Below are positions 5,603 through 59,370 of a stretch of 64,000 nt of DNA, in pieces (positions within the stretch are counted from its first letter, which is position 1; each line of letters starts with the position of its first letter). The DNA is from Schmidtea polychroa (taxonomy: Eukaryota). The stretch spans positions 56,296,001 through 56,360,000 of the forward strand of contig CM097887.1 of NCBI GenBank assembly GCA_044892525.1, given 5' to 3'. The notes beneath the pieces are model-generated. The model was not told where the DNA came from, made no database searches, and saw nothing but the letters and a program-made list of their open reading frames with translations. A program made the translations under genes and the position numbers.

Positions 5603-5616
5603 TGGCGACCACGCCG
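5603..5616 (+). promoter_or_regulatory. PBS-like motif TGGCGACCACGCCG (tRNA-Arg-type, tentative)
   Basis: Identical 14-mer to the PBS at 27974-27987 ahead of the second Gypsy gag, but no gag follows here. Confidence 0.45.
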
Positions 5617-27973: not shown

Positions 27974-30900
27974 TGGCGACCACGCCGAGAAAATCGAGCC
28001 GATTCATATAGTGACAAGAAATCAGCATAGAAAGATGGTTATGGAATCTTTACCCAATCAGTCAAAAGACATTTTAAACTTTAATGTCAGAAAATTCGAG
28101 GGCCGAAGTACGATAGAAGCAAGGAAATGGATCAAGGATATTGAAGATTGGATGATCCTTAATGATCTAAATTTAGTAAGTATTTTTGATTTGCTATTGT
28201 CTGAAGAGAAAAAGAATTTAAAGACATCTCTACAACAAATGAAAAAGCTCTTGAATGGTTTAATGACACATTTACAAAATAGAAGTCCATTATGGATAAG
28301 ATTTGTGACTTATCATTAGTGAAACAAAATCATGATGAAAGATTCGTAACATTCAACATACGAGTGAAGAAATTTGTTGACGAGGTTTTCGACTGTTGCA
28401 TTTCAAAAGAGAATATTGTTGAAATGATTTTGTGCAACAGAGTTCGGAATGAACGCTTGAAAAAAAATATATCAACGAAGCCAACATCACTGGAGAAGAA
28501 ATCAGAAATTTAGCAAAGGTACATGAAGCACGAGAAGGTTATGATGCAAAAGAACGATTGGAAGAAGTTCAGGCAGTAGCTAAATCAACATATGCAAACG
28601 TCTCTTAAGATAAAGAGATGCAGTGGACTCAAAAATCATCTTTTGATAACAGAATATATTCAAGTCGTCAACCAGAAAAAAGTAATTAATATAGAAATGA
28701 AAGAAACAAAAGACAAATTGATAAAGTGAAACCTGTGGCAGAACAATATAATGAAAGAACAACTAAGGATCGTAGACCACCACCGTTAGCTTCAATGAAA
28801 CATACCGTGAGAAAGGTTTATAATAGACGTTGTGGTTTACCTGAGCCAGCAGAAGAAATAATAATGTTGAGAGAAAAAAATTATAGAAGACCCCCTTGTT
28901 TACATTTCGTCAGTAGGGTCGAGACTGTAGATGAGCATAAAAAACGAAATGTTGTAACGAAGGATGTGATGTTTAAGAAGGATGATGATAGGAAGTGGAG
29001 TGCGATGGAAATAAATGAATTTTGTGTGTTGAAATGCTGTGGGATTCAGGACCTTCAACCAGTATGATGAGTGAAAAATGTTAGAGATTGATTGGCAGTC
29101 CAACATTGATGGAAAGCAGAGTACAGTTGAGTGGAGTATTTTCAAAAGAAGACGAGAAACCTTTCGGAAGTGTAAATATCGTTGTCAGAAAAATTTTATT
29201 GTCAGAAAAATTCATCCAGATTTCATAGGAGGGGCAGACACCATGAGAATATTTGGCATGGAGCTTAAAGAAGTCAATAATATTGATGCCGCATCGGTTA
29301 CTAAGACCAAACACATGAATTAGAGATGCCGGTTTGAAAGTTAATCCTGAGAAATGCGCGTTCTATAAAAGCGTATTAAATTTCATTGGCCATACAGTGA
29401 GTGAAAATGGAATTCAAACAAATAAAACAAAGATTTCAGAAATTGAAAATGCAACCGAACCAAAAAGTGTCAGAGAATTGAGATCATTCTTAAGTTTAAC
29501 GAATTATTATTGACGGTTTATTAAGAATTATTCAATGATTGCAGCATCTTTGTATGTAGCAACAACAGGTAATGATAAAATGATTATTTGAACTGAATAA
29601 TGTAGAAAAAGTTTTATCAATTTTAAAAAACATTTGTGTGAAGCACCAATATTAGAATTTCCAAGGACAGATCAACTATTTATTGTTGATACGGATGCTA
29701 GTTTTTGTGCCATAGGTGCTGTTTTATTTAGGTTAAGGAAGACGGTACTGAAGGAGTTATAGCATATAGTTCAAGACATTTGGCAACACATGAAATGAGA
29801 TATTGTGTTACTAGAAAAGAATTGTTGACACTCTACGAGTTTATTGTACATTTATATATGGAAGAAGATTTGTAGCCAGAACAGATCACAAGGCATTAGT
29901 GTTTATGAACACGAAAAAGAAACCAATAAGCCCACAGTTTCAGACATGGATGGCAAATTTATCTGAATACGATTTTGAGTAACAATATAGGAAGGGAGAA
30001 GAACATGGAAATGCAGATGGTATGTCTCGTTTAAATAATACGTTATGCGGTCATTGCCAAATAAAACAGAAGGACGAAAAAAAAACAAACTGCAGAACTC
30101 GGTACATAAATAGTCTAAAAGGAAGTTCAAACATTATGGAAATTATTAAACAGAAGCAAAACGAAGACAAAATTATTTCAGAAATCATATCATATATTAA
30201 TGGAAATGATGCTCATATATCTTATGAAACAATCAGTAGTAGTATTTTCAAGTATTTAAAAATATTACAGATACAAGACGACGTATTGATGATTAATACA
30301 GATGGGAAAATTGCAGTTGTAGTACCCGACAGGTACGTAAAAACATTGGTAAATTATTTTCATATTGAACTATGCCATCTGGGCATTAAGAAGACCTTAT
30401 GTTATTTAAAAGATTTTTTCTTTTGGCCATCCATGAATCAGAGTATTACTGAATGTATTAATAAATACAAGATCTGTGCTAGTAGAAAGATTGATCAAGG
30501 AAGAACAAAGGAAATCCTATTGCCAATAACAGGAGAATGGTTTTTAGAACAGATAGTAGTGGATATTGCATATATGGAAACAAAAGCAAGTAAGAAATAT
30601 ATGATAGTGATAATAGATCGTTAGGTTAGGTCAGCAACAGGTACACAGGATGAATCAACGATTTTGAATGTCATTCTGAATAATTGGTTATATCGGTTTG
30701 GTAGACCAGAAAGCATTCTTACAGATAGACGAAGAATTTTTGAAAGATCAATGTTTCGTGATTGGATGAAAAAATTTGGCATAAAACAAAAATTTAGTTC
30801 ACCATACCAACATCAATCAAATAGTTTAGCTGAACGAATAATAAGAACAGTTCGCGACATGCTGGCAACATCATTGACAGATATTGGAACAGTGAATAAT

Positions 30901-31240
30901 TGGTGCAAATTGTTTCAAAAGATTGGATTTAGTTTGAATGCTACAGTACAAAACTAGACAAAATTTTCACCTTTTGAAATTGTATATGGTCGGAAGATTA
31001 ATTTGTATTCTAGATTAGGACACATACAAAAAAGCAAAGAAGAAATTGTAGATAAATCAAAAACAAATTTAGAGAAAGCAGCGACAACAATGAAAAATAA
31101 AGATATAGACCAGCGAGGTACTAGAGTGTTCATGGTGGGAGAGGAAGTATTAGTTCGTTTGGAAAGGCATAGACGAAAGAAGAAGGGAATTCAACATGAG
31201 GGACCTTACAAAATTTTACAATTCTTATCACCAAGATAAG
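27974..31240 (+). mobile_element. Degenerate Gypsy/Ty3 internal region (PBS, gag, partial RT, RNase H, integrase)
   Basis: PBS TGGCGACCACGCCG and a gag-like start at 28035. RNase H fragments DTDASF, YCVTRKEL, RTDHKAL and HGNADGMSR. Integrase HIELCHLG...WPSM, ILTD, SNSLAER. Many stops and frameshifts; no LTR pair seen. Confidence 0.85.
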
Positions 31241-31264
31241 TTGAATTACAATTTCCAAACTCAG

Positions 31265-36299: not shown

Positions 36300-37800
36300 G
36301 AATATCGAGTTTCGTGCGGGTTTTCTGAGCAATTCTTGTTTTGTTATTATTATAATATGACCGGAACCCTTTGAGAAATACAGGGATTTCGTTACTTAAT
36401 AGTTTGGATCACTGAAATTCGAAAAGTTTTTAATTTTAACATTTACTGAAGCTTTATTTCTAATTCTAAATGAAATGGAATCAAAAAGATTACTATAAAA
36501 ATGATAACAATAAATGAAATGCCACCCTGAAAATTCACTAGGCAAATCAACAACATATTTTAATAAATTCATTACAAGATCTCTTGATTCTCTGGATGAA
36601 ATTTTTACAAAACCTCGATAACCCTGGACCATATAAAACTGTCTAGGATACCTAAATGATAAATAACATAATAAATAAATAAATTACCTGGGGGAAGATC
36701 GCCATGAAAACGGGACGATCTATGGGAACTCAGAAAAGAAAACGTAAGTAAAAAGAAATTAAAAATTAGAAAGATAAATCAAATAAAAGGAAACAAACAA
36801 GAAATTAAAACAAAGGTCATTGTTAATTAAGAAGTACAAATGAAGGTGGAACTTCGAATTCCAGAAAAACAAAATAGGGGAAAAAGCCGTATATTGACAG
36901 CTCGTCAAAGATAGCGAAATTGTCGGGAGAAGGCGGCTTAACAAAAAAGGAAAATGGAAAAATATCTTGATATCTGTCAGAGATAAGGCTGACTAGAGGA
37001 AAAGGAAAATGGAAAACAGAATCTGTCGCCAGTACCACAAATGAAACAGACTATATGAAGCAGAACAGTTGATCGAGAAATCAGAACAAAAATAGAACGA
37101 AATTAGAAACAAAAGTGGAACAAAATTAGAAGCAAAACCGAGAAAACGAGATAAGAAAACGAGAGTGAAAAGGAGAATTAACGTTTGAGAGTTAAAAAGA
37201 AAATCAAAGGGAGAATTAAACAGAGTTCAGAACAAAATGAAACGAGAAATGACGAGAATCTTTTGTAAAATTGAATATAACGTGGAAGTGGAGTAAATAA
37301 ATTAGTTGACGACTAGTGATTATTGTTGTGGTTACAGAAAGGGCTATTCTTCACGTAGTGTCGAAACAAGCTCTGTATGATAAATTGGTTTATAGTTAAT
37401 TGGGTGTAATTGAAATTTGTACAATCCAGTGTGAATATTAATAAAGCTTATCGTGTTCGAGAGTGTTAAATTGTTTCACCAACCCAATAACCCAATAGAA
37501 GTTTCTCAGGGACACATTTATAATGGCAGATTATAAATTTGAAACTTTACCTTTGTAAATATCAAGCTCAGCCTTTTACGTTGTTCAATTAATCCATTTT
37601 TAGCATTTTCTTGAGGAACGCCTATTATTTCATAATGATTTATTTTTTGAATGTCTGCCATTTGTTCACTTTCGCAAAGTTTTAATCGCTAACTCCACTA
37701 ACCATGCAAATGGGCAACTCTGTCATACAACACACCACTTGAAAAGTCACAAAGTTAGGCCGATTCCCCTATTTGAAAGGCGTTTTTATCATTATTTTTT
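36300..37800 (-). pseudogene. Possible piggyBac transposase relic split by a solo LTR
   Basis: Scattered minus-strand fragments in piggyBac order: KTPFK*G...LCDFSSGVLY, KAELDIYKGK, and VMNLL...GWHFIYCYHFYS. Confidence 0.4.
36640..37497 (+). mobile_element. Solo LTR (family S), older copy
   Basis: TGTCTAGGATACC...CCCAATA. Shares blocks with the other copies (GGGGGAAGATCG, GGGCTATTCTTCACGTAGTGTCG). TATA-like at about 37272 and AATAAA at about 37440. TSD not matched. Confidence 0.7.
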
Positions 37801-39281: not shown

Positions 39282-40445
39282 TGTTGGATGATGAAGGTAG
39301 GCACATCACCACATTCAATCTCAACAAGTATTATAGGACTGGGCCCAGAAAATATAGAGTCAATGTGTGCGCTGAAGAGCGTAGGTAAATCAAATAGCTC
39401 AGCAGTCCAATTTCCCAACAATCCAATGCCTCAAACAATAGTAACAACCAACAATTCAATTCCTCAATTCAATTCCTCAAATGATAACAATAACTTTTGT
39501 GTGATAAATCGTATCAAACTTTATTAACATTGATCTGTGTTTTAACTATATTCATTTTTATTCGTGTATAAATTTTTAGTGTATTTTACTTTATTGACAT
39601 TATCAACACTCTGTGCTTTTAACTTTATTTATTTTTATTCATATTTGTATGTAAAATTTTGATTATATTTGATTGTAAATTTTATTGGTAAACACAAAAA
39701 ATAAATATATATATAANNNNNNNNNNNNNNNNNNNNNNNNNNNNNNNNNNNNNNNNNNNNNNNNNNNNNNNNNNNNNNNNNNNNNNNNNNNNNNNNNNNN
39801 NNNNNNNNNNNNNNNNNNNNNNNNNNNNNNNNNNNNNNNNNNNNNNNNNNNNNNNNNNNNNNNNNNNNNNNNNNNNNNNNNNNNNNNNNNNNNNNNNNNN
39901 NNNNNNNNNNNNNNNNNNNNNNNNNNNNNNNNNNNNNNNNNNNNNNNNNNTGGTAATAGTGGTGATAATAGTAATGGTAATAATAATGATAATTTAAGAA
40001 AGTATTAATTAATTAATATAAGTAATTAAAAATATTTGAAATTTAATATCAGTCTGACGAGACTGAAAGAATCTAAAAGAATCTAAAAATGAAATTTAAT
40101 TCAATATCAGTCTGACGAGACTGAATTAAATAACGTATGAAATTTAAAATAATTAATTTATGCAAAAATAATCTACTATTTTAGCGAAAAACTCTTATTC
40201 AAAGGTTAATCCTTAAAATAGCTCAATACCCGAATCAGAACAAAAAGATTCACATCTTGACTAAACATACTAAGGTACAGCACGCACTACACAACATATA
40301 ACAATACACATATATTTTTACAAGCATTTCAGAAGAAGAATTTGAGAAATAATTGTCAAAGCATTGCAAACTTTTATAGAATTGAAATTGCTTATATTTG
40401 GTAATTTTTGATTATAATAAATCTTTATACACATATTTGTTTTTG
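39282..40445 (+). repeat. 5' LTR (main part) of the large Gypsy element
   Basis: Nearly identical to 56228-57385: about 7 substitutions and a 37-bp deletion in the sequenced parts. The last 25 nt of the LTR reappear at 44449-44473 after the insertion and a gap. Confidence 0.85.
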
Positions 40446-40567
40446 CTGGGATATTGCCCGGTTGAATCCAACTATTTCGCTTTAGTCTAAGGGATGGGTG
40501 TCCATCCAGTTACGATAGAGATGACCGTGTCAACCCAGAGCAAAACCCCGCACAACCTACACTCCAA

Positions 40568-40705
40568 CATAGCACCCGTGAACCACTTCACGTTGGTAAT
40601 GTGCTATGCCGGCGAGACGCCAGTAAGCAGGTGAGCCCCTGCCTTAGGACTACTCCTTACTGAGGCCCCGACTTCCTTTCCCTGACGGCCGATGGAAGGA
40701 CTTAC
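40568..40705 (-). ncRNA. Conserved three-hairpin structured RNA, copy 2
   Basis: H1 CCTTCC/GGAAAGG. H2 CAGTAAG-GAGTAGTCCTAAGGCAGGGGCTC-ACCTG-CTTACTG. H3 CATAGCAC-ATTACCAA-CGTGAA/TTCACG-G-GTGCTATG. Confidence 0.75.
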
Positions 40706-40999
40706 GTCTGACCACATCCTCAAACCTCGGATTTCCTTGAATGGGATACAAATCGATCATTGCTTGTTGGACTTTGAAAACGTAACCCTATTCATAGAGT
40801 CTACACCGAGCTAATTGTCAGAATTACAATTAATAAAAGAAACAAGATTTTTAGTCAAAATGGATTTATTTTCACATCAATACAATACACAGAAAACTAT
40901 ATGCAGTATATACAATTTAATAGAAAACGGAGCACGAGATAGGTGGAGATATTCAGTTAGATAATTTTTATACAACAAGATTTTCCTACGGTGGGATTT

Positions 41000-41749
41000 T
41001 CATTTCTCCCATTCCGTGTCAGCTAGAAGTTCATCTAAATCGAAGAACTCGGAGGCGTTTTCCTCCCACGTTACACCGGCGGCGGAGATAATGCGCCCTG
41101 GGATCCCTACGGTTAGATCGACCACGGTGGGATTGCCGTTACGGTTGACTGGGGTGACGGTTGAGGGTGTGCTTTGTTTGACGACTGCCCGTTCTCGTTG
41201 TTTCCGTTTTCTTTCAGCCCGAGATAATTGTCGACGCTTGGGCTTAGAGGAGCTGTTAGTAGTAAGAGGCAGAGTAGAGGTGGAAGCGATGGATGGAATT
41301 GCTCTACTAGTGCCGGTAAAGATCAAGTCGGCTGGCTTGGGCGAGAGCTGAGTCTCTACACACCCTCGGCAAGACTTTTTAGGTGGAGGCGACGACTTTG
41401 AAGACGTGTCGTGGTGAGTTGGGAAGAGCTGGTCGGCTTCATTTATAGGGATCTTCACTATCTTCTTAGTGGTTGCTGCCTGTAAGTAAACTTTGTGCAG
41501 CGCCTCGGACTGCTCCTTTATCAGGCTTCTTTGGGCACGGCTTTCGGAGATCAAAGCGTCCCGACAATGTTCACTACGATAGAGCTTCTTCTGGGTCTCC
41601 TTCATCTGAGCGGGACTGAACCATGTCCCCTCTAGCTCGTCTATTTTCCTTTTGTATTTCCCAATTTGGGTCTGTAGGTCTTTGATTATTGCATTCTTGC
41701 CTGAACAAGAAAAGCAGGGTCTGAGAACGGTTTTTGAATTGGGTAACAT
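41000..41749 (-). CDS. Family X ORF A (249 aa)
   Basis: Intact homolog of 3135-3896. Both proteins end in a similar acidic-hydrophobic motif (FFDLDELLAD vs FPVDIDAMIAE). Confidence 0.75.
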   Translation of the reverse strand: MLPNSKTVLRPCFSCSGKNAIIKDLQTQIGKYKRKIDELEGTWFSPAQMKETQKKLYRSEHCRDALISESRAQRSLIKEQSEALHKVYLQAATTKKIVKIPINEADQLFPTHHDTSSKSSPPPKKSCRGCVETQLSPKPADLIFTGTSRAIPSIASTSTLPLTTNSSSKPKRRQLSRAERKRKQRERAVVKQSTPSTVTPVNRNGNPTVVDLTVGIPGRIISAAGVTWEENASEFFDLDELLADTEWEK

Positions 41750-42394
41750 ATCTGATGGCTATGAAGAAAAGATAGAACTAAATAAGATAAACCGAATTTA
41801 GGAAGTCCCCATCCCGATACAATTCATTATTAACTGTGTTCGATATTTCTACAGGAAGGACGGGGTTAGTTAGTAAGAGGAATTTCCCTACGCCATCGAT
41901 CTTTGTTCCCCCTGGGGTATTTATTTACAAGAAAACCAACCGGCAACATAAGACTTCGCCTAACGAAGGTAATGTATTATTATTAAAAATGACTATCACT
42001 TGTTTATGAGAAATTATTGGTAACAGAATTGTTCGTAAAAAGGATATATAGTATTGAAGAGCCCAAGTTAAAATATATGATTTATAAAAGGAAATTATTT
42101 ATTACTAAAATTTAGTAGATAAAATAGGTAAATCCATTTCAATTAATTATTAACTATAAATATTAAAATTTTTTGAACTTCCAATAATGCGGACTTGAAA
42201 CATTCAATCACCTACTGTCGATTACCTATGGCTAGTGTTGAATCTATTAATGACTAATGAGTTTATCTAGTAGTCGACAAACTAGGACACACCAGGCAAA
42301 CTGTCTCACGGAATTCGGTTGCGGTGAAATTACATACTGCTATCGATAAACTAGAAAACTCTAATGGATGTGACGTGTAGAAAGTTATTTTCGC

Positions 42395-42586
42395 ATGATT
42401 GCGCTTAATCATACTCGCACTACCGCTGCTGGGCATCCACATGTGGATCTTGTTACTATCACTTGCAATATGGGCGTTTGTGGGTATGTGCATGTGCTCA
42501 CATTCCATGGAAATGAAATCCGATTAGCATATTGGGCGGATTTTCAGATGCTACATCACACGGTGTTGGGTTGTCATCTCTCATGA
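42395..42586 (+). CDS. Family X small ORF B (63 aa)
   Basis: Homologous to 4588-4739 (GVxxYVxV...GxxIR). Confidence 0.45.
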   Translation: MIALNHTRTTAAGHPHVDLVTITCNMGVCGYVHVLTFHGNEIRLAYWADFQMLHHTVLGCHLS

Positions 42587-44475
42587 AAATTTGAAATAGA
42601 AAATTCTATCACATCCCTATGGTTGGATATAATTTGCTTCGTAAATGAACTGTTCAACTATTTCAAGACATATTTACCGATCTCAACTCGTGGATATCGA
42701 CCATCTCGGAATTTATGTAATTATGAATTTGCATGCACTGTCTCCTATTCAGGTATATCGAAATTCGTTTCTTTTTATATCATCAAATAAAAGGTATTTG
42801 TGTATTTTGTCTTGTTTTTTCGACGATATATTTCTGACAGCATTGTGTTCTATTGCATAGCTATTCTGCTGCCGAAATAAGGGTGCTAAACTAAATTCAT
42901 TAAGAAAATTGAGCGTAAGTGGTAATTTCGAGATGAGGAATGATCTACAGATAGATGATAATTACTCTACTAACGAAAATAACAGATCTAGACCTATGAT
43001 TGACTAAATTTTCATTTACGAGAAATCATAATTTGAAGAATTATTATGGATATGAAGACTTTAGATCCACTCAGTCACTGTGAATCACTGCTACTACCTT
43101 TGCTATAAATTAGATTTATTTCGCTCCTTCTTCCTAATTATTCTACATGCATTTTGAGTGACCTTCAGCGATTGGACCCGTGGAGAAGCCTTCACATTTC
43201 GGCCCAATCTAGCTGCGTGATTGAAGAACCTCATGTCCACCGGCTGAGCTCCCGAAGGCACCTCACACCATGACATGAAGTTCCTCAACTCCACGTTACT
43301 CGCATCGAATTTTAATATATATTATATTAACTCATAAAATTCTGAACTCATAAAATAAATCATAAAAATTACTGAAAGTTAGAATCATTTATTGTAAAGG
43401 TTTTCTAAAAATAAAATCATTCATCGATCTACATTACATTCATGCCTTCACTCATTTTAAAAAACTTTAAAGGAATCAGATGAAGAGAGTTAAACTAAAA
43501 CTTTAACTATGAATGTTTACCATTACTTTTAACTTTTAACTTTTCAAAAACTAAGTGGCAAAACAAATAAAAGCTCCTTACTATCGTGGCTGAATGTTGG
43601 GCTAAATCGAAATTTGATCTCCTTGAAATAGGTTGGCTTGAGTTCAGATGTTCCTTGAATGATTAGTACTACTGCTGCTGTATGAAATTCGGTTAGTTGT
43701 GATTGTTGTCGTTCTAGTTGTACCTGTGAAGTGCTTGGAATTAACGGTAAGTTTATGATTTTTGTGCTTGTTTATATATAATTTTTTTGATGTGTGCGGA
43801 CCAATCAAAATTGAGTACCGCTTGTTTCTGTTAATTTAATTTAGTTTTCTTGTTTTTTGCTTATTTTCTCTTATTTTCTTTTGTTTTTTCTTATATATTT
43901 TATTTATTTCTTTAATTTCCTTATTATTCATTAAATTTTCCTTACTTTATTCATTGTTCTATCGTCCTATTTTAATTTTTCTTATTTTTATTTTTTGTTT
44001 TAATTCTTGTTTTCTAATTCTTGTTTCTTTTATATTTTTTCCTATTTTATTCTTAATTTATTTATTTTATTTTTCTTTCCTTAACCTCTTGCTCATCTTA
44101 GTTTCCTAATATTTAACATTTTCATTTTTCGANNNNNNNNNNNNNNNNNNNNNNNNNNNNNNNNNNNNNNNNNNNNNNNNNNNNNNNNNNNNNNNNNNNN
44201 NNNNNNNNNNNNNNNNNNNNNNNNNNNNNNNNNNNNNNNNNNNNNNNNNNNNNNNNNNNNNNNNNNNNNNNNNNNNNNNNNNNNNNNNNNNNNNNNNNNN
44301 NNNNNNNNNNNNNNNNNNNNNNNNNNNNNNNNNNNNNNNNNNNNNNNNNNNNNNNNNNNNNNNNNNNNNNNNNNNNNNNNNNNNNNNNNNNNNNNNNNNN
44401 NNNNNNNNNNNNNNNNNNNNNNNNNNNNNNNNNNNNNNNNNNNNNNNNGTTCCCGAATATCGAGACCTCGACATT

Positions 44476-44493
44476 TGGTGCCGCGAACCGGGA
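44476..44493 (+). promoter_or_regulatory. Primer-binding site TGGTGCCGCGAACCGGGA
   Basis: Two nt after the LTR end (...CTCGACA). Complementary to a tRNA ending GGCACCA; from memory it is closest to metazoan tRNA-Phe, with tRNA-His as the alternative. Confidence 0.8.
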
Positions 44494-44715
44494 CTTTAAA
44501 ATCAATTATTGTTATTCACAATTTGGGGGATAGGAATTGAGATCAGAGGGTTATAGTATTTTATATTGGGAAAATATATTTATAATAATAAAATCATCAT
44601 TGATCAATTTTAAATAAATAAATTCAGTTTTTTTTATTTATCAAGCAACTCAAAAGATAAAATAGATAATCAACCCGAAATAATTTATAATTTAAGGAAT
44701 AGAATAGTCTATAGG

Positions 44716-46272
44716 ATGAACAATAATAATAACTTTATTAAAATTTTACCAGTAGAATCATATAGAGGAGAGCCCGAAAAGTTCGACGATTTTTTCACTG
44801 AGATCGCTCAGTATGCAGAAGCTTGTGGTTGGACACCTGATGAGTTAAAAATGAGAATCCCATTATATTTAAAAGGATATGCATTACAAGCATATAACAA
44901 TTTAGAGTGTAAAGGAAATAATTTTGATCAACTCGTAAGATATCTGAGAGCAGAAATAGTAATCGATAGTGATTTACAAAAGATAAATGTTCAAAAGTTT
45001 AGAAACAGATATCAAGGTACTAGAGAATCAGTTGGTGAATATGTATATACGATTACGGAGTTAGCGAAGAAGGCATTTGGTGCAGGCGAGCACACAGCAA
45101 AATTAATTGAGGATCAATTTTGGAACGGAATACAAAAATATTTATATAAAGCATTAATTATGGTAGAATATGGTAATTTAAATGAATTAGTTCATAAAGC
45201 TAAGCGTATAGAAGCAATACAACGAGATAGGTTTAGTTCGCATGTAGATGCAATGGAAATCCAAAAGCCCATAGAGGTAAAATCTGAGTTGGGTAAGTCA
45301 GATGACAACATCCCCTGGGAGGAGATGAAGCAACTATATTTGAACTTTGTAAAAAATAGACGAAGGGTAAGCCCGAGTCCGGATAGAAGTCAATCACCTG
45401 AAAACAGGAGGAGATTTGATAATGTGAGAAACAGAAATTTCGAGAGTAGAAACAATAGAAACACTTTGGATAGAGATAATCGATATGAATATAATAGAAA
45501 TAATTATACGAGAGATAATCGAGTCGAATTTAGTAGAAATAATTTGAGAAATAATAAATATGATAGAAGTAATAGATATGATAAGAGAGATAATACAAAT
45601 GATTTGAGACGTAGACAGACAAGTCCATATAGACAGAATTCATATAGAGAAAGGCGAGGAAGCCCTTATAACAATGATGGCAGAGATAAAGTAAATTTTA
45701 ATGGACAGATTAAATGTTATAATTGCCAAAAATATGGTCACTTAGCTAAAGTATGTAATAATGCGCGAAGCGAATCGCCTAATAAAGTGAGATTTCAAAA
45801 TGAGCCTGAGATAAAACAGATTAATAGTGCTAAGTTGATATCAGCTAATGATGAAATAAACAGTTTGAGAGAAGAATTAAAAGAATTTAAAACTCAATAT
45901 GGGAGACTTATTGAGAGAAAGTTAGAAATGTCATTAAATGAGTTTCAGTGTTTTACCAATGATGTAGATATAGATAATGATGAGTTTCGTGAAGCAAGAG
46001 AAGCGGATGAAAAATTTCTTGCAGAAGCAAATAGATGTAAAGAATTAAAAGAGGAATTGAAAGAGACATTAGAAAAATGGCCTTATGATGATAATGAGAC
46101 ATTACGTATAATAAATAGAGTTCAAGTCGAAGGAATTGACTTAGAATATTTGAGAAATTTGATACCAATAATGGTAAAGAGGCAAAATATGACTAGAGTA
46201 TTTGAATTAGAAATAGAATTGAAAGAAATGATAAAATGTTATGGTGAGTTTGTGAGAAAAAATCAGATTTGA
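44716..46272 (+). CDS. gag: Gag: capsid-like N-terminus, R/N-rich linker, CCHC zinc knuckle, extra helical C-terminus
   Basis: Retrotransposon gag pattern (YRGEP...GW...YLKGYA...RYQGTRESVGEY...FWNGI) and CYNCQKYGHLAKVC at 45715-45756. Confidence 0.9.
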   Translation: MNNNNNFIKILPVESYRGEPEKFDDFFTEIAQYAEACGWTPDELKMRIPLYLKGYALQAYNNLECKGNNFDQLVRYLRAEIVIDSDLQKINVQKFRNRYQGTRESVGEYVYTITELAKKAFGAGEHTAKLIEDQFWNGIQKYLYKALIMVEYGNLNELVHKAKRIEAIQRDRFSSHVDAMEIQKPIEVKSELGKSDDNIPWEEMKQLYLNFVKNRRRVSPSPDRSQSPENRRRFDNVRNRNFESRNNRNTLDRDNRYEYNRNNYTRDNRVEFSRNNLRNNKYDRSNRYDKRDNTNDLRRRQTSPYRQNSYRERRGSPYNNDGRDKVNFNGQIKCYNCQKYGHLAKVCNNARSESPNKVRFQNEPEIKQINSAKLISANDEINSLREELKEFKTQYGRLIERKLEMSLNEFQCFTNDVDIDNDEFREAREADEKFLAEANRCKELKEELKETLEKWPYDDNETLRIINRVQVEGIDLEYLRNLIPIMVKRQNMTRVFELEIELKEMIKCYGEFVRKNQI

Positions 46273-46512
46273 ATATAACTATTGAGGCAAAGGACCTTTT
46301 GAGAACACTTATGCGTAGTACAGGGGTACATGTGTGCACAAAAGTGAATAAAGTGAAACAGATGGCCAGAGGTAATTGGCCCGAAATATTGGGAGATAAC
46401 GATAAAGTGAAACTGTATTTCAACGGGGTAGAAATGATGAATAACGAATATATAATCGACTATGGGGTAAACGTTATCGATAACAATGTTATTTCTGCCG
46501 TAATAGAAAGGC
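46263..46512 (+). CDS. Ubiquitin-like domain
   Basis: TKVNKVKQMA...DKVKLYFNGVEMMNNEYIIDYGV...VISAVIE aligns by eye to ubiquitin TIENVKAKI...[23 protein letters not shown]...TLHLVLR. Confidence 0.6.
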
Positions 46513-46721
46513 AAGAAAGTAAGGAAATTGATACACCAACCCCATCAGTAGAATTGAGTATAAACGACGAAAATGACTATGACAAACTATTTAGATTGTG
46601 GGATGCTTCTTCAGGAGGGGCAACGAAGTCACCAACAGCTAGCGATGAAATCTTTAAACCTATTGACACAAAATAGGATAATTTACATGAGACAATAGAA
46701 AAAATTGCGACACAAGCAAAT

Positions 46722-47369
46722 ATGCAGGATGCAGAGACGATGAAACGAGGTAGAGGAAGGCCTCGAAAATCTGAAATAGCCGAAAAGTCAGATGACAGAA
46801 AGGCAGCAGAGCGTTTAAGAGATATTGCAAATAATATGAGACAAGAAGTTCCAAAAAATCAGGATAATGACAAAGATATACAAATGATAACGGAGTTAGT
46901 TAAAGCAATGAATGTGAGACGGTTTCCGGAAGCAAAACCATCAGCGTTAATAGAAAATATAGTTAAAAAGATTAAATTAATGGAAAAAGAGATTAGAGAA
47001 TCGAGTGCAGAGGAAGCGAATGAAGAGACAGTGTTAAAGATATTATTTACAACAGGAGTCAATCGGGATAAAGTGATTACGGCGATGGCATATTTAATAG
47101 CAAGATACAAAAAACTTTTGCGAATGAATCCAAAGAATCAAATAGAAAATATTGCTAAAATGATATATCATAAACTAAAGGTAGATGCTATGCCATGGAT
47201 AAAATTAAAGGGAGGATGGAAAATACTGTATGATGAGAGCCTAATTGAAAGTGCTAAGGAAAGCGTAGAAGATAATATTAATGTAGAAATAGATGATACG
47301 GAGGAGACAGTAAAAAACCTAGTAAATAAAACAACTATGAGACCAAGTCAAAAAGAAAGAAAGTCGACA
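46722..47369 (+). CDS. AT-hook plus Bcl-2-like domain
   Basis: AT-hook KRGRGRPRK; BH3-like RLRDIANNM; BH1-like ILFTTGVNRDKVIT; BH2 PWIKLKGGWK, in the correct order and spacing. Confidence 0.7.
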
Positions 47370-49230
47370 ATGTCAATAGTAATTATAGTAATAACGTTAT
47401 TGTTAGATCTGATAAAAGCAAATAATGCAATCATAGCGTATGACTGTTAGAATCCTAAGTGGGGACAGAAATATTCATTATTAGATGTAGAAAATTGCCC
47501 AGAGGCTAATCCAACAAAATTAATTGTTGCAGATCCAAAGATTTTTCACATATATCAAGAGTCTGACTTCATTCACACTGAAGCAGGAGAATGTATCGTT
47601 AAATATTCAGAGGAAAGTTTTGTGTGCAATAAAATAGCAAGAACAATATAAACTCCAACATGGGCACCAGAAGCGATAATAATAGCACCAATCGAATGTG
47701 AAAATGCATTTAAAACAAAAAAGATAAAAACGCCGGATGGATTTGAGTTAAATGCTCAGGTAGGAGCACGAGTAAGGCAATTAGTAAATGTCGTTGGATG
47801 GTCATCAACAGGAGGATATTGTGAAGGAGGAACGTATAAAATATGGGGGCATGTGGCAGACAATATTGTAGTGAGACGACAATATTATATTGAATTAAGG
47901 AAATTCAAGGCGTCATTTGATAGTTCATCAAAGAAAATGATGACACATAAGTTCTGCACATTAGATGAGACAAGCTGTGATACAGGCGAGTCAATGATCA
48001 TATACAAAGTAAACAAATACGAATGCCATCTAACTAAACTAAAGACACTGAAATTCAGAACGATACGAGGTAAACAGTTCACGGATGTAGAATCCAAGAA
48101 CATTAAAGACCAAAAACGACGTGCAACGATAATTCAAGAGAGATACACCAACGATATACATGTCAGATTCTGAAACTGAAGCGATGAGATTTGTGGGAAA
48201 AGGTGAAAGTATTAAATGTGGAAAAGCAGTCATACAAACAAATTATGAAGGAATTTATATCAGTGGAAGTAAAATTAAAGAGGCAAAATCGAAAATAGAC
48301 AAATTCGATGACAAGCTAGCGTCATATTTTAATAATAAAATCGACTATTTTTATCATCATCAGTTAGTACAATTGGACAAAGTATACCAAGCAACTATTG
48401 CGAACGATTGTAAACTCAATAGAGAAATATTAAGAACAAAGATGGCGGTTGCAGTCACAAACCCAGATTTAATGGCACCAATTTTATTTGCAGAGAAAGG
48501 GACATTTGCAAGAGTTGTCGCTGAAGTGATACAAACATTTCAGTGTAAAGCGGTTAGTGTATCTTTAGCAACGAATAATAAATGTACAAACGAAAAACCA
48601 GTAGTGTATAAAGGAGAAACTGTATATCTCCAACCAATAACAAGGATATTAACAGATAAAGACTATGTTCCGAGAAAAATTGATAAATGTACAAATCTAT
48701 TAGATCCGTTATACAAAATAAATGATGATATGTGGATTACAATGTCAGATAGAAAGGAAGGGACTAAACCACAAAAACTAGAATTAACTGAACTTGAGAA
48801 AAAGTTAGAATTTCAGGAAGTCAACGAAATGGATAACAATGGGATGTATACGAGAGAGGCGATAGAGAGCGCCAGAAAACATATGTTATTTCCTCATGAA
48901 AAAGAAAAAGTTCTTTCTATTATGGTAAACAAAATTATCGAGAATAGTTATGGAGGGAATTCCAACTTTGATGTATTATTATCAAAAGAGCACTTCAAGA
49001 AAGTTGTGTATAGAGTATTATACAGCATATGGGGATATTTTGCGATTCTCGGAAATACGTTTGCCACTATATTGGGTATATATTATACAGTAGCACTATT
49101 GAAAATGATTTGTTCATCATTAGTTTTGTTAAGACAACTGAGACAAGTTTTTGGTAATTCATATAAAATGATGGCATGTTTATGTCCATTCATAGCCAAA
49201 TATTTGATCACTGCGAAGCACGACAAAGAA
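47370..49230 (+). pseudogene. env: Envelope glycoprotein, class III (herpes gB / chuvirus G-like); two in-frame stops and one frameshift
   Basis: Signal peptide MSIVIIVITLLLDLIKANNA followed by IIAYDC, then GGYCEGGTY, DCKLNREIL, FQCKAV...CTNEKPVVYKGETVYLQPITRIL...C and a C-terminal TM hairpin. Stops at 47448 and 47649; frameshift at about 48140. Confidence 0.75.
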
Positions 49231-49479
49231 ATCAAACGGATGAAAAGTCGAAGGGAAGAGGGTGAAATAATGATCACCAATGAGAAAGATGACGAGGCAA
49301 ACAAATCAGAAAATATTGAGCAACCACATATTGGGTTATATGATAATCAAAGAGAACAATTGACAGAATTGAGAAATAATATTGAAATTAGAATCCCAAG
49401 TGAAAATGGTAATTGTCATTGTGTTCCAAGGAAAACTTATGGATGTTACGGGTTAGAACTTGACGATATATTAGAAGGG

Positions 49480-52400
49480 TTAAATGAAGCAAGGCCTAAA
49501 TTACAAATAGTGATAAATAATAAGATAATAAAGGCATTATGTGACACAGGAGCAGCAGCTTCTATGATTCGTGAAGATCAGTTAACCGAAAATCAAAAGA
49601 AAAATATCGTGAGCACAAGAGATAGAGTAATTTTATTATCATCACATAACATACCATTAAAAGGCGATATCGAATTAACAGTCCACTTTTCAGATCAAGT
49701 GGTTGAACATGTCTTCGAGGTAGTAGCAGAATGTAAATGCGGGTGTGTCCTTGAGATGGACATACTCAAAAAGTTAAAAAACTGTGTAATCGATCTAACG
49801 GATAGTACAGTTAAACGGAAAGCAATATATCAAGACGCAAGATTTACTGAGGTAATTGCATTAGAGACATTCGAACTAGATTATCAAAGTGATCATATAA
49901 TTCCAGTAAAAGTTAATGTTAAAAGTGAGGACACTTTCATTTTCGAGCCTGAAACGGCAATATCACGAAATCATAATGTAATGTTAACAGACGAGTGTGT
50001 AGTTCCAAATAATGGGATAATTCCAATAAGAATCGCGAATTACGAAAGGAATAAAGTAAAAATTCATAAAGGTACAAAATTGGGAAAGTTGTTCAAAGGT
50101 GAATTAGAGCAAACATTTGAAGTATGTGAGATGTCGATAACGAGTGATGTCGGTGAAGGAATGGTCGAACAGAGTAGAGCGAATAATATTAAATTTTATG
50201 ATAAAATTAAAATAAATAATAATTATCTAAACGAAACACAACAACTACAACTACAAATATTACTTGACGAATATAGTGATGTTTTTGCAAGACACGAATT
50301 TGATTTAGGAGATACTGATATTATTAAACATGTAATCGATACGGGGAATGCTAGACCAATAAAACAGAGACCCTATAGTGTACCATATAAAATGAGGGAG
50401 GAAATTAAACGACAAATTAAAGAATTAAAAGAGGCAGGCGTAATAAAACAAAGTTTTTCACAATGGGCATCACCTATTGTGCCAGTTAGAAAGAAAGACG
50501 GGGAAATTCGAATGTGCATTGATTATCGTAAATTAAATGATGTAACAGTAAAAGATTCTTACCCATTCCCGAGAGCACAAGAACAATATGATAAACTTAG
50601 GGATACTAAGTATTTCACAGTAATAGATGCAAATAAAGGTTACATGCAAATTCAAATGGAAGAGGGGGATGCGGAAAAAACTGCTTTTGTAATTGAGGAT
50701 GGTTTATATGAATATACAAGACTACCGTTTGGGTTAACTAATGCGCCAGCAACATTTCAACGTTTAATGAATACAGTATTAGTAGATGTACAGCATTGCG
50801 CAGTATATATGGATGACATATTAAAATCGTCAAAAACATTCGAGGAACACTTAAAAGACATAGCAAATGTATTACAAAGATTGAGAAAAGCGAGAATTAA
50901 AATAAAACCCACTAAATGTAAATGGGCAGAACCTTCAGCATTATTTTTAAGACATATAGTCACAGTAGATGGTATAATACCTAACCCCGATAAAATTGAA
51001 GTAGTTAAAAAATTTCCAGTTCCAAAAACATTACAACAAGTACAGGGGTTTTTAGGTCTCACAGGATATTATCGTAAATTCATACAAGATTATGCAAAAA
51101 TAGCAGCACCACTAATTGAATTAACAAAAGGAGTCAAAACAAAGGGAGAGAGTAAGAGAGTGTTAATAGTACAGGAGATTAACGATAAAATTAACAAGCC
51201 ACAAAAGAAATGGAAAGATGAACATCAAAAAGCTTTTGATCAACTAGAAGAAAAATTAATAACAGCACCGATACTAAGATACCCAGACTTTAAAAAACAG
51301 TTTATTGTCATGACAGACGCCAGCCGGAAGGCTGTAGGGGCAGTCTTAGGACAAGAAGAGGAAAAGGGTAAAGATTATGTAATAGCTTATGCAAGCAAAA
51401 CATTAAAAGGAGCACAGATTAGGTACTCAACAATCGAGAAAGAATGTTATGCTATAGTTTTTGCATTAAAACAATTTAAACCATACATATATGGAACTGA
51501 AGGAGTAATTAGAACAGACCATAAACCATTAGAAGGGTTATGGAAACATAAAGATACATCCAGCAGACTGTTAAAATGGGCAATGAAAATACAAGACATG
51601 CACGTAAAGATTGTATACAAACCAGGCAGAATAAACAGGAATGCAGATGCATTATCACGAATTCCAGAGTTGGGAGCACTAGAAGTTTTTGCATTAGTAA
51701 CTGAAAAACCAATAGAAATATATGAGGAACAAATGAAAGACCCAGAACTCTTCAAAATAAGAGAGGAAATAAAAAAGGGAACTAACCAAAAGTATAAAAT
51801 CTGTAAGAAGTTAATTGTTATTGAGGATTTTAGCGGTAAACAATTAATAGTAGTACCACAAAGATTAAGACAAATTCTTCTAATACAGTATCACGATGGT
51901 GCTCTAGGAGGTCATTTATCAAGTAGGAAAACAGCAAGCAGATTGATGCAAAAATATTACTGGGACGATTTGAAAAAGGATGTTAAGAGATGGTGTAATG
52001 CATGCACAATATGCGCAACTAGAAAAAATACAGGAACAAAGACTAAAGCACCTTTACATCCAATCCCAGCTACAACATCACCAATGGAACTGTGCGCAAT
52101 GGATTTTTTGTGTAAACTACCCACAACAATTAATGGGAATAAGCACATACTAGTTTTTAGCGATTATTTTACCAAATGGGCAGATGCATTTCCCACTAAA
52201 GATGAAACAGCAGAAACAGTAGCCAAATTACTTGTAGAAAAAATAATCTTTAAAATCGGTACACCGAGGAAATTATTAACAGATAAAGGGAAAAACTTCA
52301 TGAGTGAAACTATAAAAAGAGTAGCTAACATATTTAACATGCATAAAATCAACACAACAGCATACCACCCTCAAACTGATGGTTTAGTGGAAAGATTCAA

Positions 52401-52956
52401 TGGGACATTTCTAAGTAGATTAGCCGTGTTTGTGGGAAAAAACCAAAATGATTGGGATGAATACGTTAATCAATGCACATATATTCATAATATCACACCA
52501 AATGAGACAACGGGATATTCACCATATTTTTTAATGTTCTTAAGAGAGCCTGCGACACCGATTGATACAATTTTTGAGCCTCGAGTATCACAATATTTAG
52601 ATGCACCAGATTATGTAACATTAATGCAAGAGAGATTTCAAGAGGTATATAAGATCTCAAATTTAAAAGTTAAATTTAGACAAGAACAGTATAAGGCAGA
52701 TTACGATAAAAATAGCAAACCTCATAATTTTAAAGTGGGAGATAAGGTTAGACTTATGTCTCCACAAGTAGGTAAAGGCAAAACAACTAAATTAGCAAGA
52801 CCATTTAAAGGACCATACGAGATAGTAAAAGTAGTACATGAAAACCTGCATTTACAAAAACATAAAAATGAGGATTCGATAATAGTACATGCTAATAGAT
52901 GCAAATTAGCAGAAACAGAGTTAGTAGAAAAACCACCTCACAAATATGGATTATGA
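49480..52956 (+). CDS. pol: Pol (PR, dUTPase-like linker, RT, RNase H, integrase), in frame with the env C-terminus in ORF 48160-52956
   Basis: ALCDTGA; RMCIDYRKLN, PFGLTNAP and YMDD (50806-50817); TDAS/EKE/TDH/ADALSR; HHCC and D-D35-E (MDF, TDKG, GLVERFN). Confidence 0.95.
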   Translation, partial: LNEARPKLQIVINNKIIKALCDTGAAASMIREDQLTENQKKNIVSTRDRVILLSSHNIPLKGDIELTVHFSDQVVEHVFEVVAECKCGCVLEMDILKKLKNCVIDLTDSTVKRKAIYQDARFTEVIALETFELDYQSDHIIPVKVNVKSEDTFIFEPETAISRNHNVMLTDECVVPNNGIIPIRIANYERNKVKIHKGTKLGKLFKGELEQTFEVCEMSITSDVGEGMVEQSRANNIKFYDKIKINNNYLNETQQLQLQILLDEYSDVFARHEFDLGDTDIIKHVIDTGNARPIKQRPYSVPYKMREEIKRQIKELKEAGVIKQSFSQWASPIVPVRKKDGEIRMCIDYRKLNDVTVKDSYPFPRAQEQYDKLRDTKYFTVIDANKGYMQIQMEEGDAEKTAFVIEDGLYEYTRLPFGLTNAPATFQRLMNTVLVDVQHCAVYMDDILKSSKTFEEHLKDIANVLQRLRKARIKIKPTKCKWAEPSALFLRHIVTVDGIIPNPDKIEVVKKFPVPKTLQQVQGFLGLTGYYRKFIQDYAKIAAPLIELTKGVKTKGESKRVLIVQEINDKINKPQKKWKDEHQKAFDQLEEKLITAPILRYPDFKKQFIVMTDASRKAVGAVLGQEEEKGKDYVIAYASKTLKGAQIRYSTIEKECYAIVFALKQFKPYIYGTEGVIRTDHKPLEGLWKHKDTSSRLLKWAMKIQDMHVKIVYKPGRINRNADALSRIPELGALEVFALVTEKPIEIYEEQMKDPELFKIREEIKKGTNQKYKICKKLIVIEDFSGKQLIVVPQRLRQILLIQYHDGALGGHLSSRKTASRLMQKYYWDDLKKDVKRWCNACTICATRKNTGTKTKAPLHPIPATTSPMELCAMDFLCKLPTTINGNKHILVFSDYFTKWADAFPTKDETAETVAKLLVEKIIFKIGTPRKLLTDKGKNFMSETIKRVANIFNMHKINTTAYHPQTDGLVERFNGTFLSRLAVFVGKNQNDWDEYVNQCTYIHNITPNETTGYSPYFLMFLREPATPIDTIFEPRVSQYLDAPDYVTLMQERFQEVYKISNLKVKFRQEQYKADYDKNSKPHNFKVGDKVRLMSPQVGKGKTTKLARPFKGPYEIVKVVHENLHLQKHKNEDSIIVHANRCKLAETELVEKPPHKYGL

Positions 52957-52971
52957 TCACAAAAAGCACTG

Positions 52972-53802
52972 ATGATGGCAGCGACATTTTTAACAATTAT
53001 AGGGTTGTGTAGATCAACTGAAGTAGAAAATGAGAACATACACTCAGTAGAATACATGGCTGAAGATATTTTAATCAACGTTTCACCGGATAAGATTAAA
53101 GCATATAACTTAAATAAATCACCAATAAGAGACTTGTATCTGGAAACTAGGGACAATATACCCAAACTTATGAAAAAAATTGAAAATAGATCAACTAATG
53201 AATTTGAAAGAGGAGATAATGTTGAATTCAGAGATCTACAACCCAACACTAATTACACACTTTGTGCACAATGGAACACATTAGTTGACACATCACAGAT
53301 AAGGTGCAAAAGGATAAAAACTACTAAAATAAACAGACTTAGAATAAAAAAACCAATAGGGAAAAAGATATCAACAACCAGAAAAACAACTACTGTAGAT
53401 TCAATATCCACACATCCTATATCACAAACAATAACGAATATATATAGGAAAACGACATTTAAAACGGTTAGACAAATATATAAAAAATTAATAATGAAAA
53501 ATCCAAGACAGTCTGATAAGAAACTGATAAAATTACCTACAGGAAAACCGATAGTTATAAATAACTGGAATGAATTACAAGTCTTTCAAAAGAAAGAAAG
53601 TAAACCACAATGGCCTTTTTATGTAATAGCTACAAGTGTAGTATCATTCGCGATTTTAGCAATTGTCACTAGTGTACAAGTTTATAAAAAGTACAAGAGG
53701 AAAAGGCAGCAGTATCGGCACCGACTGGTCAAAGAAGCACCAGGGCATTTTCACTTAGACAAATATATCCCTGGACAATATACTCTGTCCACACTTGTAT
53801 AA
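52972..53802 (+). CDS. Type I membrane protein with an FN3-like segment, in the same frame as pol
   Basis: Signal-like MMAATFLTIIGLCRS, FN3-like VEFRDLQPNTNYTLCAQ, a Thr/Lys-rich stalk, TM WPFYVIATSVVSFAILAIVTSVQVY, then KKYKRKR. Confidence 0.6.
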   Translation: MMAATFLTIIGLCRSTEVENENIHSVEYMAEDILINVSPDKIKAYNLNKSPIRDLYLETRDNIPKLMKKIENRSTNEFERGDNVEFRDLQPNTNYTLCAQWNTLVDTSQIRCKRIKTTKINRLRIKKPIGKKISTTRKTTTVDSISTHPISQTITNIYRKTTFKTVRQIYKKLIMKNPRQSDKKLIKLPTGKPIVINNWNELQVFQKKESKPQWPFYVIATSVVSFAILAIVTSVQVYKKYKRKRQQYRHRLVKEAPGHFHLDKYIPGQYTLSTLV

Positions 53803-54082
53803 TAACTTAAAAAATTTTAATTACGTAAATTGGTCAATGATATATAATAAAAGTATATATATTAATATTTATATAACTGCGTATAAGGTTAAACCTCAAA
53901 TGCGCAACAAGCATAAATATTTATTGTTTGTTTTTAGAATAATAATAAGAAACCTAGTCAGTCAATCGAATCAACCTAATCAAATCGATCTTCCAATAAA
54001 CCAAAGTCAATTCAGTCAATCGAATCAACCCAATAAAAACAATCATCATTCCTACCAAATCAATCTTCAAACAAACAAATCA

Positions 54083-54791
54083 ATGCACCCACATACGTCA
54101 GTTTACATGTATTCTCAAAGAACCAAAGCCCAGCGCAATCCAGAAACTCACAAAATAAAGAAATACGTACCGATGATACATAAACACTACAATAGTTTTT
54201 ATAAAAATCTACAAAATAAGATCAGCACAGACGGCACTCCCATTACTATCAGAAGCTTCCCTAACCAAGTCTGCATTCCAAATGACATGAAAATTGAAAT
54301 CGAAGAAAGGGAACTCCATCTCATCAAATTTAATGAAGCCCGAAGAGTAAAACTCAAAGACCTCATTGGAACATTTGATCAGTTTCCAAATGCAGAAGAA
54401 GCAGTAAGGGAAGGAAAAAAGGTACCACACAGATTACTGTTTCACATCACCAAGACAGAAGTATCAATCTGTCAAGATAGGACACCTTTAATTACCACCA
54501 GCAATTGCACAATAATGTTTAAAACAGTCAAAAACGATCGGAGCGTACCAAATGAATACAATCAACTAATAGTGCAGATGAATAACCTACCATGCGTAAT
54601 CGCAATCGAAATATTGTACATTCCTACCATCCCAAATCCTTTCAGAGAATTAGAAATCATCAAATATACAATTCAAATCCCAAGAGATGCAATTAACAGG
54701 AGAATATCATTCACCCATCAAGACCTATCAATAACAGAACGACATCAGCGTCTCATGTTCGTGGAGGCAAGGCTGATAATGGATATTAACA
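54083..54791 (+). CDS. Element-borne ORF of unknown function; runs into a gap
   Basis: Open frame of more than 230 codons with element-like codon usage. No motif recognised. The track start at 53795 crosses low-complexity AT-rich sequence. Confidence 0.5.
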
Positions 54792-55151
54792 NNNNNNNNN
54801 NNNNNNNNNNNNNNNNNNNNNNNNNNNNNNNNNNNNNNNNNNNNNNNNNNNNNNNNNNNNNNNNNNNNNNNNNNNNNNNNNNNNNNNNNNNNNNNNNNNN
54901 NNNNNNNNNNNNNNNNNNNNNNNNNNNNNNNNNNNNNNNNNNNNNNNNNNNNNNNNNNNNNNNNNNNNNNNNNNNNNNNNNNNNNNNNNNNNNNNNNNNN
55001 NNNNNNNNNNNNNNNNNNNNNNNNNNNNNNNNNNNNNNNNNNNNNNNNNNNNNNNNNNNNNNNNNNNNNNNNNNNNNNNNNNNNNNNNNNNNNNNNNNNN
55101 NNNNNNNNNNNNNNNNNNNNNNNNNNNNNNNNNNNNNNNNNNNNNNNNNTA

Positions 55152-59250: not shown

Positions 59251-59370
59251 CCTAACGTATTTAAAATTTAAAATGACACACCCCTAAGTAACCAACAAAA
59301 TGGAGAGCTTCTTTGGTTAAGACGAAAAGTCACCGAATAAATTATTAATTATGTTCGCGAGATGTCACCG

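Follow-up and report, generated by a model that had tools for sequence, protein, structure and literature searches.

Probable solo long terminal repeats carrying a selected open reading frame and conserved RNA structures in Schmidtea polychroa

A stretch of 64,000 nt from Schmidtea polychroa (GenBank assembly GCA_044892525.1, contig CM097887.1, positions 56,296,001 to 56,360,000 of the forward strand; hereafter the window) contains a repeat, family X, that had been predicted to be a mobile unit with one promoter-bearing repeat resembling a long terminal repeat (LTR), no reverse transcriptase (RT) or transposase, and a structured 3′ end. We find that family X is a genuine mobile family in which each copy is a single TG...CA unit. 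The copies are probably solo LTRs of a Gypsy-type (Metaviridae) element, and this parent was not found in the window. Because a solo LTR has neither a second repeat nor a primer-binding site (PBS), the absence of both requires no new mechanism. As a mobile unit family X is probably ordinary, and the puzzle of its mobility largely dissolves. Its cargo is unusual for an LTR, in that a repeat of 1.5-4 kb holds a selected, unannotated protein family, encoded by an open reading frame (ORF) called ORF A, together with RNA structure that has no Rfam match.

Ends, target duplications, and the identity of the repeat

Copies 1 and 3, the two whose ends are both visible, start with TGTTGG, finish with CCAACA, and are each flanked by a 4-bp target duplication (Table 1). 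The sole visible end of copy 2 is of the same TG...CA type. Random pairs of 4-mers at these spacings agree in 0.68% and 0.78% of cases; the ends were chosen by motif, which left some freedom. The same end type (TGTTG...CAACA) accompanies a 4-bp CCTT duplication in a solo LTR of 906 bp that belongs to another family (20748-21653). Duplications bracket copies 1 and 3 on either side and contradict the suggestion that the copies are 3′ halves of larger elements.

Three copies had been proposed to share one polarity, running from a promoter end through an internal region to three hairpins (H1-H3), and leave-one-out nhmmer searches recovered each omitted copy (E 4e-11, 1.1e-12, and 7.8e-15). A covariance model matches only these three copies in the 64 kb, and they are its training set. 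Copy 2 was also expected to end about 120 nt after H3. This distance (127, 131, and 119 nt in the three copies) was correct, but the end is an LTR-type CCAACA or CCAGCA terminus rather than a featureless one. A decayed relic (tblastn E 6e-5; profile E 3e-4; H1 remnant only E 0.37), for which no ends were found, brings the family to four diverged copies.

The predicted lack of a PBS and of RT was likewise upheld. Neither a PBS nor a polypurine tract (PPT) is present at any of the five visible flanks, the copies contain no RT, and tblastn with the gag and pol of the Gypsy element that hosts copy 2 gave no match to them at E values up to 1. No direct repeats were detected inside any copy at the blastn level, paired family X repeats around gag-pol do not occur within the window, and ARAGORN reported no genes there. 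Solo LTRs of animal Ty3/Gypsy elements, as characterized in the excerpted text of PMC3601003, are like family X in their TG...CA ends, 4-bp duplication, TATA box, AATAAA, and want of PBS, PPT, and enzymes. Family X differs from them by its length of 1.5-4.1 kb, by a 250-aa ORF under selection, by having its 5′ end repeated internally in inverted form, and by the 1-3.5 kb that lie downstream of its TATA box. Ginger-type cut-and-paste DNA transposons also have TGT ends and 4-bp duplications, but they carry terminal inverted repeats of 40-270 bp and target CCGG/CCGT or RTATAY (PMC2836005, in excerpt), whereas family X has a terminal repeat of ~6 bp and CTAA/AAAT targets. A non-autonomous Ginger-type element is therefore an extremely improbable identity for family X.

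Copy 2 interrupts the 5′ LTR of a Gypsy element that encodes gag, a fusion protein of the Monjiviricetes type, protease, RT, RNase H, and integrase, and that also has a sub-threshold Bcl-2 match (E 1e-6). The clean interruption that had been predicted is exact directly after 40443, although the insert begins with TG at 40444 and not at 40446. The two host LTRs, estimated earlier to be about 1% divergent, differ by 8 mismatches over 952 aligned bases (0.84%), a 37-bp deletion, and a 2-bp indel, and the mismatches are unevenly spread (0/435, 7/493, and 1/24). Since copy 2 interrupts the host LTR, its insertion postdates integration of the host, and its arrival was recent, as originally proposed. 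The youth of the host should be viewed with caution, as its reading frame is broken at several places in 46272-48173, its own duplication agrees at 3/4 bases, and its LTR mismatches are uneven. This copy of the host Gypsy has probably lost its promoter because its 5′ LTR (at 40177/40178 versus 57084-57120) lacks the 37 bp that hold the TATA box.

The promoter-side end of copy 2 and ~45 bp of host LTR are hidden by an assembly gap (44133-44448). Collapse of two near-identical 4-kb LTRs from a young full-length element could create the appearance of a single unit, mainly for copy 2, and would fit a scaffold with 11 runs of N and a gap that sits exactly where an internal region would follow. However, the gap is sized at just 316 bp, and copies 1 and 3 are contiguous across both junctions and have duplications, so we regard such an artefact as very unlikely.

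The A-rich tract (49-63% A), TGATTGG box, and TATA box recognized at the outset are present in all three copies. In each, the TATA box is followed by AATAAA and a T-rich stretch, but this hexamer is frequent in such AT-rich DNA and is only a candidate polyadenylation signal. The notion that an LTR-like unit closing in CCAAC(A/G) is itself the repeat failed: this segment is only the promoter end of the larger unit, and its boundary repeats the outer terminus internally, in inverted orientation. The inner repeat of copy 2 matches the outer end of copy 1 exactly over 12 nt (2/500 shuffles as high), and no shuffle among 500 reached the observed match for copies 1 and 3. The outer end of copy 3 compared with the inner repeat of copy 2 was not significant (44/500 shuffles). 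Only the 5′ end is matched, the 3′ end having been compared by eye.

The inner repeat finishes in CA in copy 2 only, ends in CG in copy 3, and lacks its terminal 12 nt in copy 1. Because the terminal CA is confined to copy 2 and no duplication is present, the inner repeat is not an integrase end. The possibility that the inner unit is an independent solo LTR with its own duplication, which had been put forward as a test, was rejected, as neither copy 1 nor copy 3 shows one there. A DIRS1-like identity was also rejected. Such elements have long inverted ends, an internal region complementary to both ends, and no target duplication; family X has duplications and an inner repeat related to one end.

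If the copies are solo LTRs, integrase would have inserted a full-length parent, generating the TG...CA ends and the 4-bp duplications that copies 1 and 3 display. Its two long LTRs would then have recombined, with loss of the PBS, gag-pol, and PPT. Several observations weigh against this account or against the cargo functions discussed below. From the start site to the end of the unit is ~1.0-3.5 kb, compared with ~350 nt in the host LTR, and a span of this length would be hard to copy as strong-stop DNA. Inspection by eye revealed no TATA box near H1, where transcription could alternatively start if the gene sits in a long unique 3′ (U3) region, and no complement near the copy 2 start site for self-priming of the Tf1 type. 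Copy lengths vary 2.6-fold and the bulk of the internal DNA is unalignable, with tblastx between internal regions giving nothing below E 0.25. None of the four copies precedes a PBS and gag in sense orientation, and the only PBS neighbors are antisense (copy 4 before 27974, and an insert in copy 1). Neither the host LTR nor any of the three family-Y LTRs tested has such an inner inverted repeat, and the host Gypsy's own duplication agrees at only 3/4 bases. For ORF A, a loose leucine export pattern, which is unspecific, is missing in copy 2 and present in the other 5/6 sequences scanned. For H1-H3, the support from covariation is qualified in the manner stated below.

The original prediction explained family X as a satellite-like retroelement mobilized in trans. 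With the ends corrected, this model would have a single TG...CA unit move with the RT and integrase of another element; RNA processing or priming would fall to H1 or H2, and the inner repeat would help in rebuilding the terminus. The part of that claim describing a recently mobile family without RT and with a conserved structured end stands, but the explanation is probably wrong, given a whole TG...CA unit with its own duplication. The existence of four diverged copies in 64 kb with none joined to gag-pol in sense, the family-specific inner repeat in 3/3 copies, the tight conservation of H1, possibly as a pseudoknot, and the recency of copy 2 despite its lack of an internal region are all compatible with a satellite. 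We nevertheless judge it unlikely: a transcript begun at the TATA box would leave out ~550 nt of promoter that no terminal redundancy could restore, the copies have no PBS, PPT, shared ribozyme pattern, or Rfam match, and ordinary solo LTRs are common within the window. Retrozymes, terminal-repeat retrotransposons in miniature (TRIMs), and large retrotransposon derivatives (LARDs) lack RT and have structured RNA, as family X does, are mobilized by Gypsy enzymes, and have two LTRs with a PBS and PPT. Two direct repeats with a PBS and PPT between them were not found in family X. Retrozymes additionally carry a hammerhead, and the copies share none, nor does Rfam report one.

A different possibility is that the solo LTRs have the opposite polarity, such that the parental gag-pol was antisense to ORF A, and ORF A was an antisense gene with its own promoter. 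Copy 1 contains a unique insert antisense to ORF A that resembles the interior of a miniature LTR element without LTRs, with no duplication and no similar flanking sequences. Its PBS is that of the decayed Gypsy at 27974, which we take to be of the tRNA-Arg type, and these are the only two matches in the window at ≤3 mismatches. In addition, directly upstream of that PBS and the decayed gag-pol (27974-31260) are the relic copy 4 and another antisense ORF, and an invariant CAG/GTGAGC donor occurs on the antisense strand of all three copies. Antisense ORFs are common in Retand, according to the portion of PMC11963269 that describes them, and HBZ offers a similar comparison. The opposite polarity is still quite unlikely. 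Like the ORF A strand of family X, both the host U3 and the family-Y LTR in its 5′ half are rich in A (47% A), with the polarity of family Y itself being deduced, and the RNA structures favor the ORF A strand. Moreover, copy 2 demonstrates antisense insertion into other LTRs, which could explain copy 4.

Table 1. Coordinates of family X copies, their features, and the principal neighboring repeats in the window
Feature	Position (strand)	Remarks
Copy 1, complete	2595-6675 (-)	4081 bp, CTAA duplication
Copy 2 (putative solo LTR), visible portion	40444-44132 (-)	host LTR identity stops at 40443
Copy 3, complete	57750-59297 (+)	1548 bp, AAAT duplication, without ORF A
Copy 4, decayed relic	26119-26750 (-)	H1/H2 remnant and broken ORF A (in-frame stops)
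3′ terminus ...CCCAGCA, copy 2	40444-40450 (-)	integrase-type short inverted repeat
A-rich U3-like tract, copy 2	43810-44132 (-)	63% A
TGATTGG/CCAAT box, copy 2	43801-43807 (-)	
TATA box, copy 2	43772-43778 (-)	
TATA box, copy 1	6162-6168 (-)	
Inner inverted copy of outer terminus, copy 2	43595-43617 (-)	unit end in the original prediction
Inner repeat, copy 1	5946-5970 (-)	
Inner repeat, copy 3	58367-58396 (+)	
Putative splice donor GTAAGG, copy 2	43576-43581 (-)	just past inner repeat
Putative pyrimidine tract and AG acceptor	41750-41790 (-)	directly upstream of ORF A start
ORF A, copy 2	41000-41749 (-)	249 aa; coiled-coil N-terminal domain, disordered linker, Arg/Lys-rich helix
ORF A, copy 1	3135-3896 (-)	
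AATAAA downstream of ORF A, copy 2	40865-40870 (-)	copy 1 without exact match there
Long hairpin (~80 nt) in putative intron, copy 2	43205-43300 (-)	z -5.86, 0/200 shuffles
Long hairpin, copy 1	5395-5490 (-)	
Long hairpin, copy 3	58600-58685 (+)	
H1, possible pseudoknot, copy 2	40679-40708 (-)	invariant GTAAG (donor-like); 3/4 and 1/5 pairs compensatory
H2 long stem-loop, copy 2	40614-40669 (-)	invariant G-G mismatch and 1x3 (U/CAC) internal loop; 21 pairs, 9 compensatory
H3 short hairpin, copy 2	40577-40592 (-)	5 pairs, 2 compensatory
H1-H3, copy 1	2722-2858 (-)	
H1-H3, copy 3	59040-59178 (+)	
Insert unique to copy 1	5603-5819 (+)	antisense to ORF A; 14-nt PBS start, purine-run end
Host Gypsy	39282-57456 (+)	~18 kb; order gag, Bcl-2, mononegavirus-type fusion protein, pol
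Decayed Gypsy	27974-31260 (+)	PBS and gag-pol fragments; no second LTR found
Family Y, four diverged ~0.9-kb solo LTRs	8953-9838 (-), 20748-21653 (+), 36640-37495 (+), 59478-60360 (-)	

A selected protein and conserved RNA structures

The observation that the copies are very diverged while ORF A is intact in two of them proved accurate for copies 1 and 2, whose products are 37% identical (E 3e-46). It must be amended in that copy 3 has no ORF A at all and a broken one exists in the fourth, relic copy. Over the first 112 codons, identity by codon position is 0.60/0.71/0.33, and nonsynonymous divergence (dN) is 0.44 with synonymous divergence (dS) saturated. Because of these codon-position identities at saturated synonymous sites, ORF A is under purifying selection.

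Among 1.84 billion representatives, a profile built from the two sequences found 15 relatives (E 5.7e-13 to 1.6e-4). Twelve of these are fusions with Pfam domains of unrelated kinds (transporter, actin, phosphatase, and others); gag, RT, and integrase are absent from all 15. The fusions would be explained if a gene predictor had spliced a repeat-borne exon into host genes, which fits the presence of an acceptor directly before the ORF A start codon. The occurrence of relatives in so many unrelated gene models implies that family X corrupts gene annotation.

The AlphaFold model of ORF A (mean predicted local distance difference test score 66.6, predicted template modeling score 0.39) has confident helices at residues 16-39 and 46-98, a basic helix at 177-192, and disorder elsewhere. 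A 16-residue window with ≥9 Lys or Arg residues occurs in both ORF A copies and in 9/15 relatives (11/17). The product is probably a nuclear, nucleic-acid-binding coiled-coil protein, with RNA as the probable target, although the basic helix may simply be a nuclear localization signal.

Other searches did not link ORF A to a characterized protein. Pfam yielded no family for either copy, none of 503 candidates scored in a word-index search (limited to lengths of 136-436) was a match, and Foldseek gave no match to viral models at E values up to 0.001. One relative has a sub-threshold match to the Pfam REV family (E 0.0013, 19.1 bits versus a cut-off of 22). ORF A shows no similarity to the one host accessory ORF with which it was compared, and its profile matched no other segment among 2587 six-frame segments. 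Six additional small ORFs in or near the copies have no Pfam match better than E 0.024. The sole PDB sequence match, the basic leucine zipper of NFIL3 (E 0.042), was rejected because the coiled coil of ORF A precedes the basic stretch and is distant from it.

The structured end recognized in the original prediction is indeed conserved, with H1-H3 kept in three copies. Compensatory changes affect 14/33 consensus pairs, against ≤5 in slid controls and 0/500 shuffles, which is supportive but is not a probability, as the structure was derived from the same three sequences. Single-sequence stability is ordinary (z -1.15 to -1.79), so the support comes from covariation. H1 may be a pseudoknot of two crossing helices, which were drawn by eye. 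The mismatch and internal loop of H2, which we liken to Rev response element (RRE) stem IIB and to C-loops, suggest by analogy a protein-binding site.

A long hairpin is the second structure found in 3/3 copies. It lies on the same strand ~200-450 nt beyond the inner repeat, with z values of -4.06, -5.86, and -4.29 in copies 1, 2, and 3, and the hairpin of copy 1 is unrelated in sequence. When 2408 strand-windows are ranked by stability, the hairpin of copy 2 comes first, that of copy 1 second, and that of copy 3 seventh; about 10 windows elsewhere have z ≤ -4, but with far weaker energies. All structures fold better on the promoter strand (H1-H3: -35.8 kcal/mol versus -23.4 kcal/mol on the opposite strand). 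Rfam returned no match in the whole window at gathering thresholds, and for copy 2 only chance matches (E 1.6 and 2.9). A crude pattern scan for hammerhead, HDV-like, and twister ribozymes found nothing common to the copies, with the hammerhead motif CUGANGA in 1/6 strands scanned.

A possible regulatory circuit within the LTR

Taking the copies as solo LTRs, the CCAAT/TATA promoter after the A-rich U3 would start a short first exon. Motifs suggest splicing that joins this exon, by a donor just beyond the inner repeat, to the acceptor directly before ORF A. GTAA[GT] occurs within ~20 nt of the inner repeat in 3/3 copies, a pattern spotted post hoc, and an acceptor is seen in both ORF A-bearing copies, with TTTAG immediately before the ATG in copy 1. 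The encoded protein would bind nucleic acid in the nucleus. In the unspliced RNA, the long hairpin and H1-H3 could act as signals in cis. Pairing between the inner repeat and the start of U3 could loop the genomic RNA. Copy 3 retains both structures while lacking ORF A, as a division into cis and trans components predicts.

Provided that the solo-LTR reading is correct, we tentatively suggest that ORF A could regulate the RNA of its own element through the long hairpin or H1-H3, at the level of export, splicing, or packaging. A transcriptional or anti-silencing role is equally conceivable. If ORF A does control export or splicing through these structures, an invertebrate Gypsy lineage would have, in compact form, a type of control that is listed for complex vertebrate retroviruses only. 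The more specific proposal of an LTR-internal module like Rev or Rex, in which a spliced Arg-rich RNA-binding protein acts on its RNA target (the long hairpin or H2), is rather doubtful. Were it true, every solo LTR would be a dispersed regulator with the capacity to act in trans on copies that, like copy 3, have no ORF.

Family X shares with the Rev, Rex, Rem, and Rej systems a small basic protein, putatively spliced, next to structured RNA; in the part of PMC3856414 that covers them, such proteins are listed only in vertebrate retrovirus genera. It differs in that ORF A has no homology to these proteins beyond Arg-richness and copy 2 yielded no export signal. Retand TRP28, Grande gene 23, and HBZ of HTLV-1 are likewise conserved extra ORFs with probable regulatory roles (PMC11963269, in part). 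They are located between pol and the 3′ LTR, whereas ORF A lies between integrase-type ends.

Long LTRs and accessory ORFs also characterize the plant Ogre elements, whose LTRs span 1.9-6.5 kb. Accessory ORFs are present in the planarian giant Gypsy Burro as well, and its order of Bcl-2, mononegavirus-type env, and pol is that of the host Gypsy here. In the sections of PMC6431247 that treat both groups, the extra ORFs are in the internal region; ORF A, in contrast, is inside the LTR, with no link to pol seen. Literature searches, made at listing level and in one case by exact phrase only, gave no match for an LTR-internal accessory gene or a Rev-like protein in invertebrate Gypsy elements. Family X may already be catalogued in the primary literature on Burro (Grohme 2018; Lee 2026) or in Repbase, which were outside the scope of those searches.

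Other features of the window

The window is AT-rich and gapped, with a few intron-bearing host genes and many repeats. Three unannotated ORFs follow pol in the host Gypsy (52957-56334), one of which extends into the 3′ LTR. Copy 3 includes three degenerate 49-nt repeats at 58772-58986 (+). ORF B (27239-27733, -), of ~165 codons with one in-frame stop and a splice acceptor before it, is antisense to the decayed Gypsy just downstream; it is not similar to ORF A, and Pfam gave no match for it.

Inverted arms of ~130-150 nt flank a fragment of a non-LTR-type RT, possibly Penelope-like, at 9905-10947, and a 354-bp element with 52-nt inverted ends (22334-22687) resembles a miniature inverted-repeat transposable element (MITE). 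A DDE transposase remnant is present at 15433-16388, and an AT-rich 100-mer at 17501-17600 folds strongly (z -6.3). Pieces of host genes comprise PRPS with short introns (12138-13024, -), which is ~80% identical to its counterparts in many animals, a KN-type homeobox (19248-19793, +), a TMEM126-like ORF (24321-24941, -), and a zinc-finger coiled-coil ORF (62707-63099, +).

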